A DNA stretch of 64,000 nucleotides, taken from sequence record OM386664.1; one strand, given 5' to 3'. Below, in pieces: positions 15,107 to 58,531 of the stretch. The notes beneath the pieces are model-generated. The model ran no database searches. It was not told the DNA's origin and was given only the letters and a program-made list of their open reading frames with translations. This DNA is from Escherichia phage vB_EcoM_ESCO50. The translations under genes and the position numbers were made by a program. Position 1 is the stretch's first letter. The number at the start of each line of letters is the position of its first letter.

Positions 15107-17806
15107 ATGGAAAACGTAGATTTTAAAAACTTACATTTAGTTGGCGATACAGAAACTGATGGTTTGCTCCTTGAGTTCACTAAAGTGCACGTAATGGCTT
15201 TCGCAGACTATAAATCTGACGATGAAGAGCCACCTGTATGGGTCTTTACAGATGAGCCTATCCTCGGTCACAAGTACACTAAGTACCTTAAGGGTGGTTT
15301 ACGTGAAGGTGTTGAGTTTGCGTTAAAGGCAAAACGTCTTTGCATCCATAATGGTCTCGGTTATGACTGGTGGGTTTTCAATCACATTGCACCGGATTTA
15401 TGGAACTTTGATAATCCAAAGTGTAAGCCGTGGAGTAATTTCTTTCAGGATTCTCTTATCCAGTCTCGTGTTCAGTGGATGGATAGGCCAACTCCAAAGG
15501 GTTATAAAGGTGCTCATGGTTTGGCTGCATGGGGTGCTCGTGTTGGTGTTCGTAAGCCAGAGATTGAGCATTGGGGTGTGTGGAATGCAGAAATCTTCAC
15601 TCGTGTTGTAGATGATATCCGTATTAACGCCAAAACTAAACGGGCACTTGATAACGAGTATCTCAAGCTTAAGAAGTGTGGCATAGACACTTATGAAACC
15701 TACATGCGAGCTAAAGAAACATCTTTCTGGATGAGTCAACAAGCTATCAATGGTTGGAAAGCTGATAAAGAGCTTATGGAGTTCCATGTGAAGGAACTTG
15801 ACAAGTTGACTAATGAGCTTGCTTCAGAGGTTGAACCACATCTTCCTCCAACTATTAAGACCAAAGGTAAAGTCACTGGAGAAGAGTTTGCAAAAGCTTG
15901 GAATGAGTATGTTGAAACATTTGGTCATGCAGATGGACTGAAAAGAATTACCAAGTACCCTAAGACAAAGTATCGTCAGCAGGTACGTAATGGTGAGATG
16001 CAGACATACGAAATCAAACCATTTGGTAAGCCAACTACAAAGATTTTTAACATTGAAAAGAGAAATTGCTATACACCAACCAACTCTGTAACTGGTGAAG
16101 AGTACAAGGAAGGTTTTGTAGCAATGAAGGATGCTCGTGCAATTTGCAATGAGTTGAATGCAAAGATTGGTAAGAAGTGCAAAGACTGGAAGCCAGTAAA
16201 AACAGTCAAAACTGTGAAGTATTATAACAGCCACGTTGTTAACCACTTTGAACTTGAGTCAAGTCGCTACACAGGTTTGATTGATGCACCATATACACCA
16301 ATTGAGTTTGAAGTTTCTCGTATGACTCAGGTAGCAGTTGTTAAAGACTACTTGAAATCAGTTGGTTGGATTCCAGATGACTGGAACTACAAGAAAGACT
16401 CAGACGGTCGCCCTGTCAAAGTTTGTCGTTTCAAAGACAATAAAAAGATGATTACAAAACATCCTAAGTGGCAGGAGATGGTTGAACGGTGTGGTTTGAG
16501 TTATGTTGAACATGAAGGTGTACAGTACATTGAGCATAACTGGTCTGTGAAGAAATACACAGATTTGCTTGAACCTTGCTTAATCCGTACTTCACCAAAA
16601 CTTACTGAATCATCTTATGACACGATTGAAGGTGAGCTTGGACAGAAGATTGCGAAATACTACACTTTGATGCACAGACGCAGAACTATTGAGAACTCAA
16701 AGGATGATGAAAAAGGTTGGTTAAACCAGATTCGTCCCGATGGTCGCCTTAGTGCTGGTGCAATGGTGTTTGGTACTTCAACTGGACGTATGACACAATA
16801 TGGTATTGTAAACGTACCATCTGGTGCTGCTGTCTATGGAGCACCTATGAGGGAGGTTTGGACTTGTGAAGATGGTACAGATATCATTTCCGTAGACCAA
16901 AACTCAGCCCAGCTAGTTCTCCTTTGTAACTTTATGGGTGATGAAGACTTCACTAAAGCGGTAACTGAGGGTAAAGAGTCAGTAGAGTTCACTAAGCAAG
17001 ATGATGGTAGATACTACTGTAAGCATCTTGACAAGTATCTTAACCCAGAAACTGACAAGTATCTGCGTTATGATGCTGAAAATGACCTCTATGAAGTCTA
17101 CACAGGGACTGATGCGCATACACTGAACAGTATTTACTTTGGTCTGAACAAAGAAGAAGATATTGTTCGTTGTAGGGAGACACAGGATGAGGAGCTTCTT
17201 CACGAGATTACAAAAGGTCGTAAGAAGAGCAAAAATGGCATCTACGCCCTGTTATTTGGAGCCGGAGACGAGAAGTTTGCAAAAACTATCAAGGCATCAT
17301 CTACGGAAGAAGGTGCATTGACTAAACAAACTTACTTTGTGCGTCTACCTAAGATTAAAAAGCTGCTTGATAGACTAGAGGAAGACTTCAAAGCAACTAA
17401 GAAAGCACTTGAAGAGGTTTTTGGAAAAACTTCTGCAATTGCGAAAGGTGGGTACATCAAAGTTGCTGGAGCGTGGTTATGGTGTAAATCTCCACATAAG
17501 TTATTGAATTACACACTTATGGGCAGTGAGGCGCAGGTGCAGAATGAGGGTATTAACTTGGCTAACAGAGAGTTAACAGAGCGTAAGCTTACAGTCCTAA
17601 ATGGTAGGAAACCAGCTATTGGTGCTAGATGGGTCTGTAGTTACCACGACGAAGTTTCTTTAGAGGTTCCAACAAAAGATGTACCAGATGTTAAGGAGAT
17701 TATTGATAGGATGTATGGTCAAGCATCAAAAAATCTTGGATTAAAAAGTAAGACGCTTGTTACAGGCACTGGTAAGGTAGGTAAGACATGGTACGCCGTA
17801 CACTAA
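15107..17806 (+). CDS. DNA polymerase, family A (T7 gp5-like) with 3'-5' exonuclease domain
   Basis: Exo I motif VGDTETDGL, Exo II-like CIHNGLGYDW, polymerase-region motifs (…DQNSAQLVLL…, …SYHDEVSLEV…); 899 aa. Confidence 0.9.
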   Translation: MENVDFKNLHLVGDTETDGLLLEFTKVHVMAFADYKSDDEEPPVWVFTDEPILGHKYTKYLKGGLREGVEFALKAKRLCIHNGLGYDWWVFNHIAPDLWNFDNPKCKPWSNFFQDSLIQSRVQWMDRPTPKGYKGAHGLAAWGARVGVRKPEIEHWGVWNAEIFTRVVDDIRINAKTKRALDNEYLKLKKCGIDTYETYMRAKETSFWMSQQAINGWKADKELMEFHVKELDKLTNELASEVEPHLPPTIKTKGKVTGEEFAKAWNEYVETFGHADGLKRITKYPKTKYRQQVRNGEMQTYEIKPFGKPTTKIFNIEKRNCYTPTNSVTGEEYKEGFVAMKDARAICNELNAKIGKKCKDWKPVKTVKTVKYYNSHVVNHFELESSRYTGLIDAPYTPIEFEVSRMTQVAVVKDYLKSVGWIPDDWNYKKDSDGRPVKVCRFKDNKKMITKHPKWQEMVERCGLSYVEHEGVQYIEHNWSVKKYTDLLEPCLIRTSPKLTESSYDTIEGELGQKIAKYYTLMHRRRTIENSKDDEKGWLNQIRPDGRLSAGAMVFGTSTGRMTQYGIVNVPSGAAVYGAPMREVWTCEDGTDIISVDQNSAQLVLLCNFMGDEDFTKAVTEGKESVEFTKQDDGRYYCKHLDKYLNPETDKYLRYDAENDLYEVYTGTDAHTLNSIYFGLNKEEDIVRCRETQDEELLHEITKGRKKSKNGIYALLFGAGDEKFAKTIKASSTEEGALTKQTYFVRLPKIKKLLDRLEEDFKATKKALEEVFGKTSAIAKGGYIKVAGAWLWCKSPHKLLNYTLMGSEAQVQNEGINLANRELTERKLTVLNGRKPAIGARWVCSYHDEVSLEVPTKDVPDVKEIIDRMYGQASKNLGLKSKTLVTGTGKVGKTWYAVH

Positions 17807-18291
17807 CACTTCAAGATTACAAGGACAATTTTATTTACGACCCCGACAAAGGGGTCTTCTACAACAAGTATGACAGGAATAGGCAAGCTAAAGCTGGTCA
17901 GGTTGCCGGAGGAAGTGATGCTTATGGTTACAGGGTACTTAAATTCAAAGGTGTTGTAATAAAAGTACATCACCTTGTTTGGTGGTTTGAGCATGGTTAC
18001 AAACCTACTAAGATGATAGACCACATTGATGGTAATAGGAGCAATAACCACATTTCTAATCTTAGAGAGGCCGATAAATATGGAAACGCTCAAAACAGAG
18101 TAAAGCAGACAACTAACAAATCAGGTTACAAGGGTGTATATTACTTTAAAGACTGCAATAAGTGGAGGGCAGCTATAACATGCAGAGGTAAAAGGACATC
18201 ACTTGGTTTATTTGACACACCTGAAGAAGCCCATAAAGCTTACTGTGAAGCTGCTATAAAACTCCACGGAGAGTTTGCAAAACTAAGTTGA
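17788..18291 (+). CDS. HNH homing endonuclease with AP2-like DNA-binding domain
   Basis: HHLVWWFEHGYKP...IDHIDGNRSNNHISNLR is a classic HNH signature; start overlaps polymerase stop by 19 nt. Confidence 0.85.
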   Translation: MVRRTLTLQDYKDNFIYDPDKGVFYNKYDRNRQAKAGQVAGGSDAYGYRVLKFKGVVIKVHHLVWWFEHGYKPTKMIDHIDGNRSNNHISNLREADKYGNAQNRVKQTTNKSGYKGVYYFKDCNKWRAAITCRGKRTSLGLFDTPEEAHKAYCEAAIKLHGEFAKLS

Positions 18292-18342: not shown

Positions 18343-18561
18343 ATGACACTTTCAGAGATTGAAGTTCAGTTGCAATGTGCTGGTTATTCTCAAAAAGAGA
18401 TTGAAGGGATGTTTATTGTTCTTTGCAGTGGTTCTAGAAATTTGAAGGTAAGTCCTGAATTTCTTCGTAGAGTAGATATCTTTATTGCTGGAGGCAAAAT
18501 TGCAAAAGACAAGACAGGGTACTTAAAAGGTGAACGTATTGATATTCTGGAGTTGATATGA
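18343..18561 (+). CDS. Hypothetical protein (72 aa)
   Basis: ORF track. Confidence 0.45.
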   Translation: MTLSEIEVQLQCAGYSQKEIEGMFIVLCSGSRNLKVSPEFLRRVDIFIAGGKIAKDKTGYLKGERIDILELI

Positions 18562-18827
18562 ATAGTTTGTATAGTCTCTGGAGAAGGGTTATGTGGAAAG
18601 CAGTAATTGCACTTGGTGTTATTTTTCTATCTGGCTGCAATCCTTCTTATGAAGATAAAAATGCTTCTTACAGTCTCCCACCAGAGATGCAAGATTGCAT
18701 AGTCTATGAGTTATATGGTGATACTACAAGTAGAGATATTGTTGTTGTAAGATGTCCAAACTCTCAAACAACAACATCTTATAGCTATGGCAAAAATGGC
18801 CAATCACATACTACGGTTATTGAGTGA
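18558..18827 (+). CDS. Small predicted outer-membrane lipoprotein (lipobox LSGC)
   Basis: Signal peptide MNSLYSLWRRVMWKAVIALGVIFLSGC with lipobox; ~65-aa mature part with two further Cys. Confidence 0.55.
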   Translation: MNSLYSLWRRVMWKAVIALGVIFLSGCNPSYEDKNASYSLPPEMQDCIVYELYGDTTSRDIVVVRCPNSQTTTSYSYGKNGQSHTTVIE

Positions 18828-19044
18828 GGTTTTCACGATGGAAGTCCTAGTAAACTATATCTATCGTTATGATGTTGTTCACTCCACTACAACCATAGCT
18901 CAACGTAATCCAATCGTCCCACGAGAAGGTGAGTTTGTTCGCATTGAGGGTTGGACTTACACTGTGGAAAGCATCATTCATAAGTTTGATGTTGCTGGCG
19001 ATGTTCAAGTTATCGACGTAGAAATTGGTAGTAAGAGAAAATGA
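18787..19044 (+). CDS. Hypothetical protein (85 aa)
   Basis: ORF track. Confidence 0.4.
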   Translation: MAKMANHILRLLSEVFTMEVLVNYIYRYDVVHSTTTIAQRNPIVPREGEFVRIEGWTYTVESIIHKFDVAGDVQVIDVEIGSKRK

Positions 19045-20141
19045 CAACACTGTACAAACAAAATAAAGATGGCTCTTTCAACGTCTGGTCATGTACTGCT
19101 GTAGGTGATAAAGTTATTACAACCTACGGTAAAGAAAATGGCAAGATGATGTTTGAAGAGTATACAGCAGAACCTAAAAACATCGGTAAAAAGAATGAGC
19201 GTAATGCTGAACAGCAAGCCCTCTTTGAAGTTGCTGCTAAGTATAAAAAGCAAGTTGACCGTAAAGGGTATGCTTACACAAAAGAGTCTGCACAGAATAC
19301 TGAGAAGGTAGGTGTACAGCTTGCTCATGATGCTGCAAAGGTTAGCCATGCAAAGTATCTGAAGTTCCCTGCTGATGCTCAACCAAAGCTTGATGGTGTC
19401 CGTTGTAGAATTTCAAGAGATGCTGATTCAGTTAGTTTCACAGCTTATTCTCGTGAGAATACTGTTTACAACGTTCCAGCAGAACTAATCCCAGATTTGC
19501 TTTTGTTGCTTAAATTACATCCACAAGTTGAAGACTTTGACGGAGAGATTTATGCTCATGGTTGGGACTTAGAAGATATTGTGTCTATGATTAAGAATGC
19601 TGACAATCCAGACCGTCACCTTCTTAAATTCTACTGGTATGATACCTGTGACAATTCAAAATCTTGGCCTGAGCGTCGTGAAGTTATTGATAACTCACCC
19701 ATTGTTGAACTTGGGGATACCTGTAGAGTGGTTCCTGTACAGACTATCCGTGTAAATTCTTGGGAAGAGTTTGACGAAGCTCATGATAAGTGGGTTGAAG
19801 CTAAGTTTGAAGGTGCAATGTACCGTTCAATCTCTGAAGACTCCTTCTATGAGTGTTGTCACCGTTCATACTTCTTGATTAAGCACAAGAAGATGCACAC
19901 TGAAGAGTTTAAAGTGACTGGTGTCAAGACCGATAAGCGTGGTCATGGTAAGTTCGTTGTAGAGACTCTTCCTAACGTCTTTGTAGATGTCTCATGGAAG
20001 ACTACTCATGAGAAGAAACAGTATCTTGCTGAACATCCTGAAGAGTTTATCGGGAAACCTTTAACAGTTCAGTTCCAGAAGATGACTCGTAAGGGTTCTT
20101 TACAGTTCCCTGTTGGGCTAGTTATTCGAGATTACGAATAA
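19041..20141 (+). CDS. ATP-dependent DNA ligase-like nucleotidyltransferase
   Basis: Covalent nucleotidyltransferase motif I KLDGVRC (KxDG) at ~residue 116; 366 aa. Confidence 0.65.
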   Translation: MTTLYKQNKDGSFNVWSCTAVGDKVITTYGKENGKMMFEEYTAEPKNIGKKNERNAEQQALFEVAAKYKKQVDRKGYAYTKESAQNTEKVGVQLAHDAAKVSHAKYLKFPADAQPKLDGVRCRISRDADSVSFTAYSRENTVYNVPAELIPDLLLLLKLHPQVEDFDGEIYAHGWDLEDIVSMIKNADNPDRHLLKFYWYDTCDNSKSWPERREVIDNSPIVELGDTCRVVPVQTIRVNSWEEFDEAHDKWVEAKFEGAMYRSISEDSFYECCHRSYFLIKHKKMHTEEFKVTGVKTDKRGHGKFVVETLPNVFVDVSWKTTHEKKQYLAEHPEEFIGKPLTVQFQKMTRKGSLQFPVGLVIRDYE

Positions 20142-20221
20142 AAAGTTGTTGACATAGAAAATTTGGTGAGTATACTGAGCAGCATAAACCGACGGGTACT
20201 CACCAGCATCACTTAAGAGTC

Positions 20222-21601: not shown

Positions 21602-21613
21602 GTTGACTAGGTA

Positions 21614-21627
21614 GCCTCTTCGGAGGC
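21614..21627 (+). terminator. Rho-independent terminator (gcctc-ttcg-gaggc followed by tcctttttaaaa)
   Basis: Perfect hairpin plus T-tract directly after stop of 21155..21601. Confidence 0.6.
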
Positions 21628-21631
21628 TCCT

Positions 21632-21778: not shown

Positions 21779-21813
21779 TTGACAAGTCAGGTGTTATAGC
21801 TTATTTTTATACT
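21779..21813 (+). promoter_or_regulatory. Putative sigma70-type promoter (TTGACA-N17-TATTTT; TATACT further downstream)
   Basis: Immediately follows composite element C; ~40 nt upstream of 21852 ORF. Confidence 0.35.
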
Positions 21814-21851: not shown

Positions 21852-22235
21852 ATGAAAAAGATTTTATTAGCTACTGCAATGGTTATGGCAATGAATTTAC
21901 CAGTCAATGCAACAGAACTTCCAAATGTGAACTTATCAGGTGTTCCAGAAGACACTTGCCAGATTGTTAAAGGTGTTGCTCTATATAGAGGTGAGCTGCT
22001 TAAACCAATCTCTGAAGAGTCTTTAACAGAGATGACTGATAAGGTAACTGACTACCAGTATCGTGTTCTTGCAGAGTATTTCCTGCAATCTGCAAACATT
22101 AAAGAGAAACACCATGACGATATTGATGTACAGGCGATGCTCAATCACCGTATCCAGTTTAAAGAAGATTTGATGCAAAAAGCTATGTATGGTGTTGAGT
22201 ATTTCTTAGAAAACAGAAGCTGCACAGGTATTTGA
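21852..22235 (+). CDS. Secreted/periplasmic protein with cleavable signal peptide
   Basis: N-terminus MKKILLATAMVMAMNLPVNA is a typical Sec signal peptide; 127 aa. Confidence 0.55.
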   Translation: MKKILLATAMVMAMNLPVNATELPNVNLSGVPEDTCQIVKGVALYRGELLKPISEESLTEMTDKVTDYQYRVLAEYFLQSANIKEKHHDDIDVQAMLNHRIQFKEDLMQKAMYGVEYFLENRSCTGI

Positions 22236-25378: not shown

Positions 25379-25744
25379 TCAGTGTTCTTCTGTATTCTTC
25401 TCAGTAATAGCTTGGAGGGCTGATACTGATTGAGCCAGATTATTCACACTGTCAGAGAATTTATCAAGAGTTTTGGTAAGTTTTGCGTTTTCACCCTTAA
25501 CATTCTCTAACTGAACTTTCTGGTTCTCCATCCCTAACTGAAGCAATCTCATGTCAGACTGTAAATCACGAATAGCTGAATAGTTACTACTTGTGTAATT
25601 ATCCAACTGTTGTAACTTTGTTTTGACAGACACCTCTTGTTTACCACTTGACACTTGCATGGTGGTATACATTCCGATAACACTAAAAATACCAACTACA
25701 ATTGCACCAATATTATTTTTAAAAGCTTCCTCTAGCCACTTCAT
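25379..25744 (-). CDS. Membrane-anchored coiled-coil protein (121 aa), function unknown (holin/spanin-like topology)
   Basis: One N-terminal TM segment (NIGAIVVGIFSVIGMYTTM) then coiled-coil. Confidence 0.45.
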   Translation of the reverse strand: MKWLEEAFKNNIGAIVVGIFSVIGMYTTMQVSSGKQEVSVKTKLQQLDNYTSSNYSAIRDLQSDMRLLQLGMENQKVQLENVKGENAKLTKTLDKFSDSVNNLAQSVSALQAITEKNTEEH

Positions 25745-56566: not shown

Positions 56567-56941
56567 ATGCAAGCTAAGAGTGCAAAAGACTTTTATTGCT
56601 TCCTACAAACCTATATCAATTCCGTGCAAAATGGTGAAAGGTACAACCTTAATGATGTTATCCCAACACCTTTGACATGGAGGCTCGATAAATGGCCTGA
56701 AGAAGATATTACACCAACAAGCGAACAGTGTACCTACAATCCTGAAATCAACCTTCCAGACTCTGAGAATCTATTATATCCAATGTTCCATATTGTTGGT
56801 CTTGGAAGATTTCTTATGGATATCCAGTATGTAATTGGTAAAGATTATAAGGTTAAAGGTATTGTTGTTGGTGATGTATCTCCGCATCACAAAGGTTATT
56901 TTAGACTAAACGCACATTTAGAGGCTAAAAGAAATGATTAA
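56567..56941 (+). CDS. Hypothetical protein (124 aa), paralog of the N-terminal domain of the next gene
   Basis: MQAKSAKDFYCFLQTYINSVQNGERYNLNDVIPTPL... aligns with MIKAKTYPDFKEFVNGFVANVKAGKRYDFRTYQEAILPL... and both share ...FxMDxQYxI... Confidence 0.5.
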   Translation: MQAKSAKDFYCFLQTYINSVQNGERYNLNDVIPTPLTWRLDKWPEEDITPTSEQCTYNPEINLPDSENLLYPMFHIVGLGRFLMDIQYVIGKDYKVKGIVVGDVSPHHKGYFRLNAHLEAKRND

Positions 56942-58067
56942 AGCAAAGACTTACCCAGACTTCAAAGAGTTTGTGAATGGCTTCGTTGCAAATGTAAAGG
57001 CTGGTAAGAGATATGATTTTAGAACATATCAGGAGGCTATTTTACCGCTTACCTATAGTTCATATTGGCCTGAAGCTGATATTGCAGAAGTTGAGGAATT
57101 TGACTACGAGCCAGACTACAAAGTTCCATTTAGTGATGAGTTGCTTTACAGCATCGGTGCTCAAATGAGGACTTCTGACTTCTTCATGGACTTACAATAT
57201 GCAATTATCAATGATAAAGATGTTGATACGGTTTATTGTGAATGGTTGGCAAGAGTTAAACCATTCTCAATGCTGAATGCTAAGTTGAAGGATGCTATCA
57301 AGCCACCAGTAATCACTCAGCAGCCAACCAATCAAACAGTAAATGAAGGTGCTACACTTACCCTAAGTGTTGTTGCAACGAATGCTACTGGATATCAATG
57401 GAAAAAGGATGGTGAGGATATCACTAGTGCCACATCTGCAACCTACACCAAAGAAAGTGCAACCACTGCTGATGCTGGTTCTTATACTTGTGTTGTGTCT
57501 GGAGAGGCTGGTACAAGTGTTACCTCAGATGCGGCAACAGTTACTGTCAACGCACTGCCTGTGATTACACAGCAACCTTCTAGCCAGACCATCAATGAGG
57601 GTGGAAACATCAGCTTGGAAGTGACTGCAACAGGTGCAACAGGCTATCAGTGGAAGAAAGATGGTTCTGACATTCCTTCGGCTACAGAGGCTACCTATAG
57701 CAAGTCTGGTGCGCTTCCAGCAGATGCAGGTTCATATACTTGCGTTGTAACAGGTGCAGGTGGTTCTGTGGAATCTGATGCTGCAACAGTTACTGTGAAC
57801 GCACTTCCAGTAATCACTCAACAGCCAACCAATCAAGAAATCACTGAAGGTGATACCTTAACGCTGAATGTTGTGGCAACTGGTGCAACAGGCTACCAGT
57901 GGAAGAAAGGTGAGGAAGACATCCTCGATGCAACTGCTGCAACTTACACCAAAGAAGGTGCAACCGCTGCTGATGCAGGAAGCTACACTTGTGTAGTTAC
58001 TGGTGCAGGTGGCTCTGTAACATCTAATGCAGCAACAGTTACAGTTAACCCAGCAGGGGAGGCATAA
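56934..58067 (+). CDS. Protein with N-terminal paralogous domain plus three tandem Ig-like domains
   Basis: Three ~83-aa repeats each containing PVITQQP...GYQWKK(D)G...AGSYTCVV...ATVTVN, an Ig-like (I-set-type) pattern. Confidence 0.65.
   Translation: MIKAKTYPDFKEFVNGFVANVKAGKRYDFRTYQEAILPLTYSSYWPEADIAEVEEFDYEPDYKVPFSDELLYSIGAQMRTSDFFMDLQYAIINDKDVDTVYCEWLARVKPFSMLNAKLKDAIKPPVITQQPTNQTVNEGATLTLSVVATNATGYQWKKDGEDITSATSATYTKESATTADAGSYTCVVSGEAGTSVTSDAATVTVNALPVITQQPSSQTINEGGNISLEVTATGATGYQWKKDGSDIPSATEATYSKSGALPADAGSYTCVVTGAGGSVESDAATVTVNALPVITQQPTNQEITEGDTLTLNVVATGATGYQWKKGEEDILDATAATYTKEGATAADAGSYTCVVTGAGGSVTSNAATVTVNPAGEA
57304..58053 (+). repeat. Three tandem ~250-bp near-identical coding repeats (Ig-like domain units)
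   Basis: Repeat starts near 57304, 57553 and 57805. Confidence 0.7.
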
Positions 58068-58531
58068 TGCAACTCTCAAGAAAAGGTTTAGAAGCTATTA
58101 AGTTCTTTGAAGGTCTTAAGCTAGAGGCTTACGAAGATTCTGCTGGAATCCCCACAATTGGGTACGGAACAATTCGTATTTCTGACAAACCTGTTAAGAT
58201 GGGTATGAAGATTACCGCTGAACAAGCTGAACAGTATCTTCTCGCAGATGTTGAAAAGTTCGTTGCAGCAGTGAACAAATCCATCAAGGTTCCAACTTCT
58301 CAGAATGAGTTTGATGCACTTGTAAGTGAAACATACAACATTGGCATCACAGCCATGCAGGACTCTACGTTTATCAAGCGCCACAATGCTGGTAATAAGG
58401 TCGGTTGTGCAGAAGCTATGCAGTGGTGGAACAAGGTTACAGTCAAAGGTAAGAAGGTCACTTCAAACGGTCTTAAAAACAGACGTAGAATGGAAGCTGA
58501 CATTTATCTTGACAGTGTATACCCAAAGTAA
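58067..58531 (+). CDS. Endolysin, GH24 (T4 e-type) lysozyme
   Basis: FEGLKLEAYEDSAGIPTIGYGT catalytic-region signature (Glu, Asp, TIGxG); 154 aa. Confidence 0.85.
   Translation: MQLSRKGLEAIKFFEGLKLEAYEDSAGIPTIGYGTIRISDKPVKMGMKITAEQAEQYLLADVEKFVAAVNKSIKVPTSQNEFDALVSETYNIGITAMQDSTFIKRHNAGNKVGCAEAMQWWNKVTVKGKKVTSNGLKNRRRMEADIYLDSVYPK

Follow-up and report, generated by a model that had tools for sequence, protein, structure and literature searches.

A lipoprotein gene between DNA polymerase and DNA ligase

The DNA analysed here, a stretch of 64,000 nucleotides from Escherichia phage vB_EcoM_ESCO50 (OM386664.1; hereafter the window), belongs to a Felix O1-like myovirus (Ounavirinae, Felixounavirus). 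Between its genes for DNA polymerase (15107-17806, plus strand) and DNA ligase (19041-20141, plus strand) lies an open reading frame (ORF) of at most 89 aa at 18558-18827 on the same strand, which is the subject of this report; the 4-kb stretch around it is 87-96% identical to that of many Felix-like phages of Escherichia, Salmonella and Shigella. The polymerase gene opens and the ligase gene closes an unbroken same-strand run, in which several stop and start codons overlap and in which a search for terminator-like sites found none; a promoter-like site that matches 11 of 12 consensus positions follows 3' of the ligase gene (20149-20176). Within the run, and all on the plus strand, the polymerase gene is followed by a gene for an HNH-AP2 homing endonuclease (17788-18291), by an ORF of 72 aa directly upstream of the one described here (18343-18561; PHROG 4230) and, downstream of it, by an ORF of 68 aa (18838-19044; PHROG 4427), the stop codon of which overlaps the start of the ligase gene. 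Both flanking ORFs are of unknown function and lack a membrane segment. A genome comparison of the genus names the genes of the replication block as early genes (PMC8300805), and the location among early replication genes given in an earlier note on this DNA is supported by the position between polymerase and ligase.

The maximal ORF has the boundaries given in that note. Its ATG at 18558 overlaps the stop codon of the upstream 72-aa ORF (ATGA) and is preceded by a GGAG at 18549-18552. The conserved start, however, is not this codon but the ATG at 18591, so that the most likely coding sequence runs from 18591 to 18827 on the plus strand and encodes a prolipoprotein of 78 aa that begins with MWKAVIAL. 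Relatives keep both this start codon and the Shine-Dalgarno sequence that precedes it, here GGAG (18580-18583), seven bases 5' of the ATG: a start codon is found at or beside the position of 18591 in all 21 Felix-like loci taken from IMG/VR, and the relatives have AGGAG or GGAG about 7 nt ahead of the MWK methionine. The ATG at 18558 has a counterpart in just three of the 21, and the frame 5' of the MWK methionine is mostly closed by stop codons or lacks an ATG at these loci. The curated annotations of two homologs, Mordin_43 and bas63_0042, likewise begin at the counterpart of ATG 18591. To judge from these signals, ATG 18591 is most likely the start of the lipoprotein gene, and ATG 18558, with a GGAG of its own, may be used as well; the mature lipoprotein is identical whichever of the two is chosen.

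From the short start, the N-terminus reads MWK-AVIALGVIF-LSGC, and from the longer start it reads MNSLYSLWRRVMWK. A charged beginning is thus followed by the hydrophobic core AVIALGVIF and then by L-S-G-C, in agreement with the features by which bacterial-type lipoproteins were recognized, namely a positively charged N-region, then a hydrophobic stretch, and a lipobox of the form [LVI][ASTVI][GAS]C among roughly the first 35 residues. The lipobox (L24-S25-G26-C27 in the numbering of the 89-aa form) is encoded at 18627-18638 on the plus strand, and the cysteine codon TGC at 18636-18638 specifies the predicted site of lipid attachment and residue 1 of the mature protein. The mature domain (18636-18824, plus strand) is predicted to consist mainly of β-strands and contains two conserved cysteines (18696-18698 and 18753-18755), which, judging from the structural model described below, probably form a disulfide in the periplasm. 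An 89-aa ORF with the lipobox LSGC and two further cysteines, as described in the earlier note, can thus be read directly from the sequence; its estimate of about 65 aa for the mature part was right as to the small size, the exact length being 63 aa. With asparagine at position +2 after the lipobox cysteine, the Lol pathway is predicted to deliver the protein to the outer membrane. When the whole window was scanned in six frames, no other credible lipoprotein ORF emerged, the remaining lipoprotein-type matches being short ORFs that lie antisense to or within larger genes.

This ORF is a genuine, well-conserved gene under strong purifying selection. Calculated over 22 Felix-like copies, dN/dS amounts to 0.145 for the whole gene, and to 0.09 in the mature part and 0.44 in the signal peptide when these are taken separately; a relaxed signal peptide as against a constrained mature part is the pattern expected of a cleaved leader. 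The mature sequence is 80-95% identical among phages of Escherichia, Salmonella, Shigella and Citrobacter, and the homolog in phage Bas63, gene 42, is about 88% identical by a direct count on the two sequences. The gene is missing from about 20% of Felix-like genomes and is thus accessory and dispensable for basic growth. One of those without it is ESCO56, the closest relative over the region, in which other small ORFs fill the slot; the slot is variable and adjoins the homing endonuclease gene.

One might still suspect a spurious ORF or a decaying, functionless remnant, given that the gene is annotated as 'hypothetical protein' everywhere, is missing from some close relatives and occurs in two frameshifted copies in metagenomes (P0012, P0013). 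We give this suspicion next to no credence: a spurious ORF was rejected on the dN/dS of the mature part, and the conserved Shine-Dalgarno sequence speaks against it as well, as do the cysteines and motifs common to the 635 clusters of relatives that are described in the following.

The DUF4884 / PHROG 902 family

The gene belongs, as an ordinary member, to DUF4884 / PHROG 902, a family that is catalogued but uncharacterized. Its product matches PHROG 902 (unknown function) with E=2.3e-16 over residues 10-87, and 11 of 13 close homologs carry the precomputed label PF16225, which is named DUF4884 on one of them (P0017). A Pfam scan of the protein itself returned no match, even at E<=10, so the Pfam assignment rests on the precomputed labels of its homologs; scans against NCBIfam and PADLOC gave no meaningful match. 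A profile search run against 1.84 billion representative proteins gave 635 clusters at E<=1e-3, almost all of them 75-120 aa in length, and a scan of genome contigs with the alignment of close homologs yielded no confirmed relative. In the literature on DUF4884/PF16225 we found annotation tables only and no functional study.

The most conserved stretch of the family, V-V-R-C-P-N-S-Q-T-T-T, is encoded at 18744-18776 on the plus strand. Its core CPNS is present in 100 of the 161 family proteins in hand, VVRCPNS.T.T is invariant in one of the alignments (A4), and the common family signature can be written as Y.LP.EL.DCK.Y...VVRCPNS.T[ST]T...GK. A lipobox-like motif is found in 153 of the 161 proteins (~95%), and in an alignment of 150 sequences the lipid-attachment cysteine and the first internal cysteine are invariant and the second internal cysteine nearly so. 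The present protein fits the architecture that emerges from these alignments, which we derived ourselves and did not take from a published definition of the family: a lipoprotein some 75-120 aa long, with a pair of conserved cysteines that flank a hairpin and the motif VVRCPNSxT[ST]T...GK.

Structure prediction with AlphaFold2 reached a mean pLDDT of 73 with the 150 sequences and of 55 with 10 close sequences. The model comprises a signal helix, a short strand and then a β-hairpin (37-42/50-54 in the 78-aa form), with Cys36 and Cys55 flanking the base of the hairpin as would suit a disulfide staple; in the conserved C-terminal third, pLDDT stays below 50. Foldseek searches against viral models matched members of DUF4884 only. 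Sequence and profile searches of the PDB returned nothing beyond signal-peptide matches, those to the N-terminus of the family profile being exclusively lipoprotein signal peptides.

The family is spread over a wide range of phages. Members are found in the early regions of Erwinia and Yersinia jumbo phages (Eneladusvirus), Acinetobacter Obolenskvirus and T5-like vibriophages (Demerecviridae), and further in the T4-like Acinetobacter phage Acj61, in CR3- and phiTE-like phages, in jumbo coliphages including PBECO4, 121Q and fEgEco12, in ICP1-like phages, in the T4-like Aeromonas phage Aeh1, in Aeromonas phage vB_AceP_PAc and in T1-like coliphages; one cluster resides on Acinetobacter baumannii contigs of ~112 kb, some of which are labelled as plasmids. 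Every DUF4884 gene that we inspected forms part of a series of small early genes. An all-against-all search for a conserved neighbour at 19 non-Felix loci (phages and viral contigs) found none that is common, the only shared neighbours being those among three closely related Eneladusvirus genomes. As a stand-alone accessory gene, DUF4884 has spread to the early regions of many unrelated phages of Gram-negative bacteria.

Not all of its members have the same residue after the lipid-attachment cysteine. Some of those from phages of Enterobacterales, namely an Erwinia phage and the coliphage fEgEco12, have aspartate at position +2 and would be retained in the inner membrane by the E. coli sorting rule. 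In view of these members, location in the outer membrane is perhaps not essential to the function of the family, and they hint at a target that may be reachable from either membrane.

Comparison with exclusion lipoproteins and spanins

Among the known systems closest to this gene are the lipoproteins by which some phages exclude superinfecting ones. Llp of T5 (PDB 8A60, 7QJF) binds the periplasmic face of the TonB-dependent transporter FhuA (PMC9586334), and Rtp45 of phage Rtp (PDB 9RPS) binds that of the LPS translocon LptDE (PMC12685063), on which it docks via β-strand pairing; in either case the target is the protein receptor of the phage itself. Both are of ~6 kDa, face the periplasm and contain a disulfide, which is the same format as that predicted for the present protein. 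The likeness to Llp extends to a mature part of ~61-63 aa with one disulfide (predicted here), to a periplasm-facing position at the outer membrane (likewise predicted here) and to early expression by a virulent phage; the likeness to Rtp45 lies in the predicted β-rich structure, the C-terminal strand of which is conserved and may be flexible.

The earlier note had proposed, with Llp as the precedent, that the protein blocks the phage's own receptor. Such a lipoprotein would alter an outer-membrane protein receptor from its periplasmic face and thereby prevent adsorption of the same phage, and in favour of this idea one may cite the common format (a small, periplasm-facing early lipoprotein with one internal disulfide, predicted in our case) as well as the fact that one annotation team named a homolog 'lytic conversion lipoprotein'. 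Among the features of the Llp/Cor group that could be checked, however, the protein shares just the small mature size and the predicted intramolecular disulfide. A profile-profile alignment with Llp aligns the signal peptide alone, BLASTP of the mature part against mature Llp gives no alignment, the PDB profile search returned neither Llp nor Rtp45, and a search for a fold match to Llp or Cor found none. The genomic context differs, too: exclusion lipoprotein genes adjoin the receptor-binding gene in T5 and in BASEL phages (PMC9586334; PMC8594841), llp lying directly 3' of the receptor-binding gene pb5 and Rtp45-type genes 3' of a J-like tail tip gene at the receptor-binding locus (PMC9586334, PMC8594841), whereas the present gene lies between polymerase and ligase and not beside tail fibre or receptor-binding genes; the positional counterparts of the tail fibre genes of Mordin and Bas63 are large ORFs on the minus strand at ~26-29 kb.

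The biology of the receptor points in the same direction. Felixounaviruses depend on an intact LPS core, LPS is their reported receptor and no protein receptor is known for the genus (PMC8594841; PMC8300805), although it may conceivably have a secondary protein receptor as well. The mature part is 80-95% identical across host genera, despite tail fibres that are reported to vary within the genus (PMC8300805), and DUF4884 as a whole spans phages with unrelated receptors. Finally, a DUF4884 gene and a separate cor occur together in the T1-like phage Henu8, the former in the early region and the latter next to the tail fibre gene, which sets the family apart from the Cor lipoproteins of T1 and phi80. 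We rejected membership in the Llp, Cor and Rtp45 families on the missing similarity and the differing genomic context, and we regard an Llp-like block of the phage's own receptor as highly improbable. It may still act in a broadly similar physical mode, in which a small, disulfide-bonded periplasmic lipoprotein binds an envelope protein.

A lysis-related role, be it as an o-spanin or in modulating when lysis occurs or how the outer membrane is disrupted, also has to be considered. O-spanins are small outer-membrane lipoproteins with periplasmic cysteines (PMC6139136), and the present protein resembles o-spanins of the lambda Rz1 type in these respects; the negative score of Bas63 gene 42 in the PhageMaP screen discussed below could be read in the same sense. 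In contrast to Rz1, however, the gene has no embedded, overlapping or adjacent gene for an i-spanin, that is, for a type II membrane protein with a coiled coil, and it does not lie in a lysis cassette. The earlier note had named pairing with an inner-membrane spanin as an outcome that would speak against its own proposal. With no membrane segment in either flanking ORF, there is no i-spanin candidate beside the gene, the upstream ORF included, and no i-spanin/o-spanin pair was found within the window.

In relatives, moreover, the spanin pair is located elsewhere. Mordin has overlapping i-spanin and o-spanin genes (134 and 133) beside rIIB, ~57 kb from the lipoprotein homolog, and in Bas63 the pair consists of genes 89 and 90; in both phages these pairs are annotated near rIIA/rIIB, far from the homolog. 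Since the relatives have a separate spanin pair, and no partner gene is present here, we rejected an identity as o-spanin. The gene shares its orientation with the replication genes and not with the endolysin or holin genes, and no lysis gene recurs beside DUF4884 members in other phages (19 loci), so that we consider a role in lysis of any kind quite improbable. The earlier note had described the gene as far from any lysis or spanin context. This holds for spanins and for the endolysin gene (58067-58531), which is 40 kb away, but the nearest lysis-type gene, the positional counterpart of a Mordin gene annotated as 'holin' (25379-25744, minus strand), is ~6.5 kb off.

A possible early role at the host envelope

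We favour, albeit tentatively, a reading in which the protein is a periplasm-facing early effector that acts on a conserved component of the host envelope and possibly gives generic exclusion. The prolipoprotein would be translated alongside the replication genes of this virulent Felix O1-like phage, and its sequence suggests that it would then be exported, lipidated at the lipobox cysteine and cleaved by signal peptidase II. The product would be a disulfide-stapled β-sheet domain of roughly 7 kDa that faces the periplasm. As the distribution of the family suggests, this domain may bind a component of the host envelope that is conserved and accessible from the periplasm: because the domain is conserved despite differing receptors, hosts and gene neighbours, the target is most likely such a host component and not the phage's own receptor or a phage protein. 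Such binding might then change the cell's envelope at an early stage of infection. The likeliest outcome, if we may speculate, would be either a receptor-independent exclusion of later phages or a protection of the envelope until lysis, and a general role in exclusion at the level of the envelope is possible.

Two weak leads fit a periplasmic early role. One is found in Acj61, a single genome, in which the DUF4884 homolog lies directly upstream of a gene annotated as spackle. T4 Spackle (Sp, gene 61.3), an exclusion protein of the periplasm, inhibits the tail lysozyme of incoming phage, and it resembles the role proposed here in being early, exported, receptor-independent and active in the periplasm; it is a soluble periplasmic protein and not a lipoprotein. 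The other lead comes from the PhageMaP screen of Bas63, in which disruption of gene 42 resulted in fitness scores of -0.59, -0.79 and -0.78, that is, in the range of structural genes, clearly dispensable genes scoring +0.7 to +1.5 (bioRxiv 10.1101/2024.10.10.617714). The scores step down from gene 45 (+0.7) through genes 44, 43, 42 and 41 to the ligase gene (-1.4 to -2.7); given this stepwise fall toward the ligase gene, the score of gene 42 perhaps reflects polarity or broken translational coupling.

The envelope might also be the site of a different activity. Many early accessory phage genes serve counter-defence, and the protein could act in host takeover by neutralizing an envelope-associated defence of the host or a prophage, or a stress sensor, instead of excluding other phages. 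Such a role would suit an accessory gene of patchy presence that occupies a variable slot by a homing endonuclease gene, and it would suit the breadth and horizontal mobility of DUF4884. On the other side, no PADLOC model matched the protein, and no known envelope defence appears to be suitably conserved across Vibrio, Acinetobacter and Enterobacterales; nor is gene 42 among the genes that the main text of the PhageMaP report names as shifting in screens against defence systems. On balance, we consider counter-defence unlikely.

The effector reading, which we prefer, can be taken further. The C-terminal strand of the family has the consensus ...GK-x4-5-T-V-V-I-D, often extended to ...VVIDGVEY, which may resemble TonB-box sequences. 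Conceivably, DUF4884 could be a pan-phage, receptor-independent effector in the periplasm, the probably flexible C-terminal strand of which is added by β-augmentation to some universally conserved machine that spans the envelope, for instance TonB, Tol-Pal, Lpt or Bam, and jams it early in infection. We think it decidedly doubtful that matters are as specific as this; if they were, the family would provide broad exclusion of heterologous phages and colicins, in phages that range from Felix O1 to the jumbo phages.

As the family was already catalogued, the gain from this analysis is not a discovery, but a correct gene call and a well-framed, cheap experiment; its significance rests on the breadth of the family and on the low cost of following it up. 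DUF4884 is present in therapeutic and typing phages, among them Felix O1 relatives, Acinetobacter and Vibrio phages and jumbo phages. If it has a defined host target, few early functions directed at the envelope would be more widespread among phages of Gram-negative bacteria, and it could explain cross-exclusion between unrelated phages in a cocktail.

A variable slot beside a homing endonuclease gene

The lipoprotein gene (18558-18827, plus strand) lies in a same-strand run that leads from the DNA polymerase gene to the DNA ligase gene and also includes an HNH-AP2 homing endonuclease gene (17788-18291, plus strand), which shares 19 bases with the 3' end of the polymerase gene. Among relatives, the arrangement of this HNH-AP2 and polymerase 3' region differs or is split, and the ligase genes are annotated as split in several of them. 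Escherichia phage ESCO56, the closest relative across the polymerase-to-ligase region, lacks the lipoprotein gene: the corresponding segment of its locus (L001, 3059-3483) instead carries an unrelated 69-aa ORF and a diverged second copy of the upstream 72-aa ORF. In roughly 20% of Felix-like records, the downstream 68-aa ORF is the only part matched; the lipoprotein slot is therefore a variable hotspot beside the homing endonuclease gene. Two records that include sequence with 85-93% identity to this Felix-like region, GU169904.1 (Staphylococcus phage SA1) and MG065668.1 (Campylobacter phage A126), bear names that point to Gram-positive and Campylobacter hosts; these look like contaminated or chimeric entries.

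DUF4884 homologs in other phages

Homologs of the lipoprotein are also found in phages of other types. In the T4-like Acinetobacter phage Acj61 (NC_014661.1; locus L046, 3501-4091), the homolog Acj61p058 is directly followed by a gene annotated as 'spackle periplasmic', after which come 61.1 and gene 61, for the primase; this adjacency of DUF4884 and spackle genes was seen in one genome only. The Escherichia jumbo phage fEgEco12 (locus L045, 2501-3389) encodes the homolog g526, with Asp at position +2, and, one gene beyond it, a second, unrelated small lipoprotein of 91 aa with several Cys (g528); its authors labeled both as 'lytic conversion lipoprotein'.

Fitness scores and transcription signals around the ligase gene

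In the Felix-like phage Bas63, whose gene 42 is the lipoprotein homolog, fitness scores drop step by step along genes 45 (+0.7), 44, 43, 42 and 41 and are lowest, down to -2.7, in the two ligase genes, 40 and 39 (bioRxiv 10.1101/2024.10.10.617714, Supplementary file 3). This gradient suggests either that insertions are polar in this run of translationally coupled genes or that the small genes themselves make a real contribution. Directly after the ligase gene of the window, a near-consensus sigma-70-type promoter (TTGACA-16-TATACT; 20149-20176, plus strand) precedes two ORFs of unknown function (200 and 148 aa) and a terminator-like hairpin (21613-21628, plus strand); together, the two elements bound a predicted small, separate transcription unit.

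Further proteins of the window

Just 5' of the endolysin gene, a 377-aa protein (56934-58067, plus strand) contains three tandem repeats of ~80 aa each (VITQQP.NQ...GATGYQWKK...AGSYTCVV), which look like Ig-like domains; the annotation of the Felix-like phage Mordin lists its counterpart as a tail protein that has immunoglobulin-like domains.

A 127-aa ORF (21852-22235, plus strand), some 3 kb away from the lipoprotein gene and preceded by a promoter-like site (21779-21807), encodes a second exported protein. It carries a Sec-type signal peptide (MKKILLATAMVMAMNLPVNA, before TE) and two Cys in its mature part. The product belongs with PHROG 4332, of unknown function, by its match, and nothing in the PDB matched its sequence. 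It is probably periplasmic and is a candidate for acting on the envelope in its own right.
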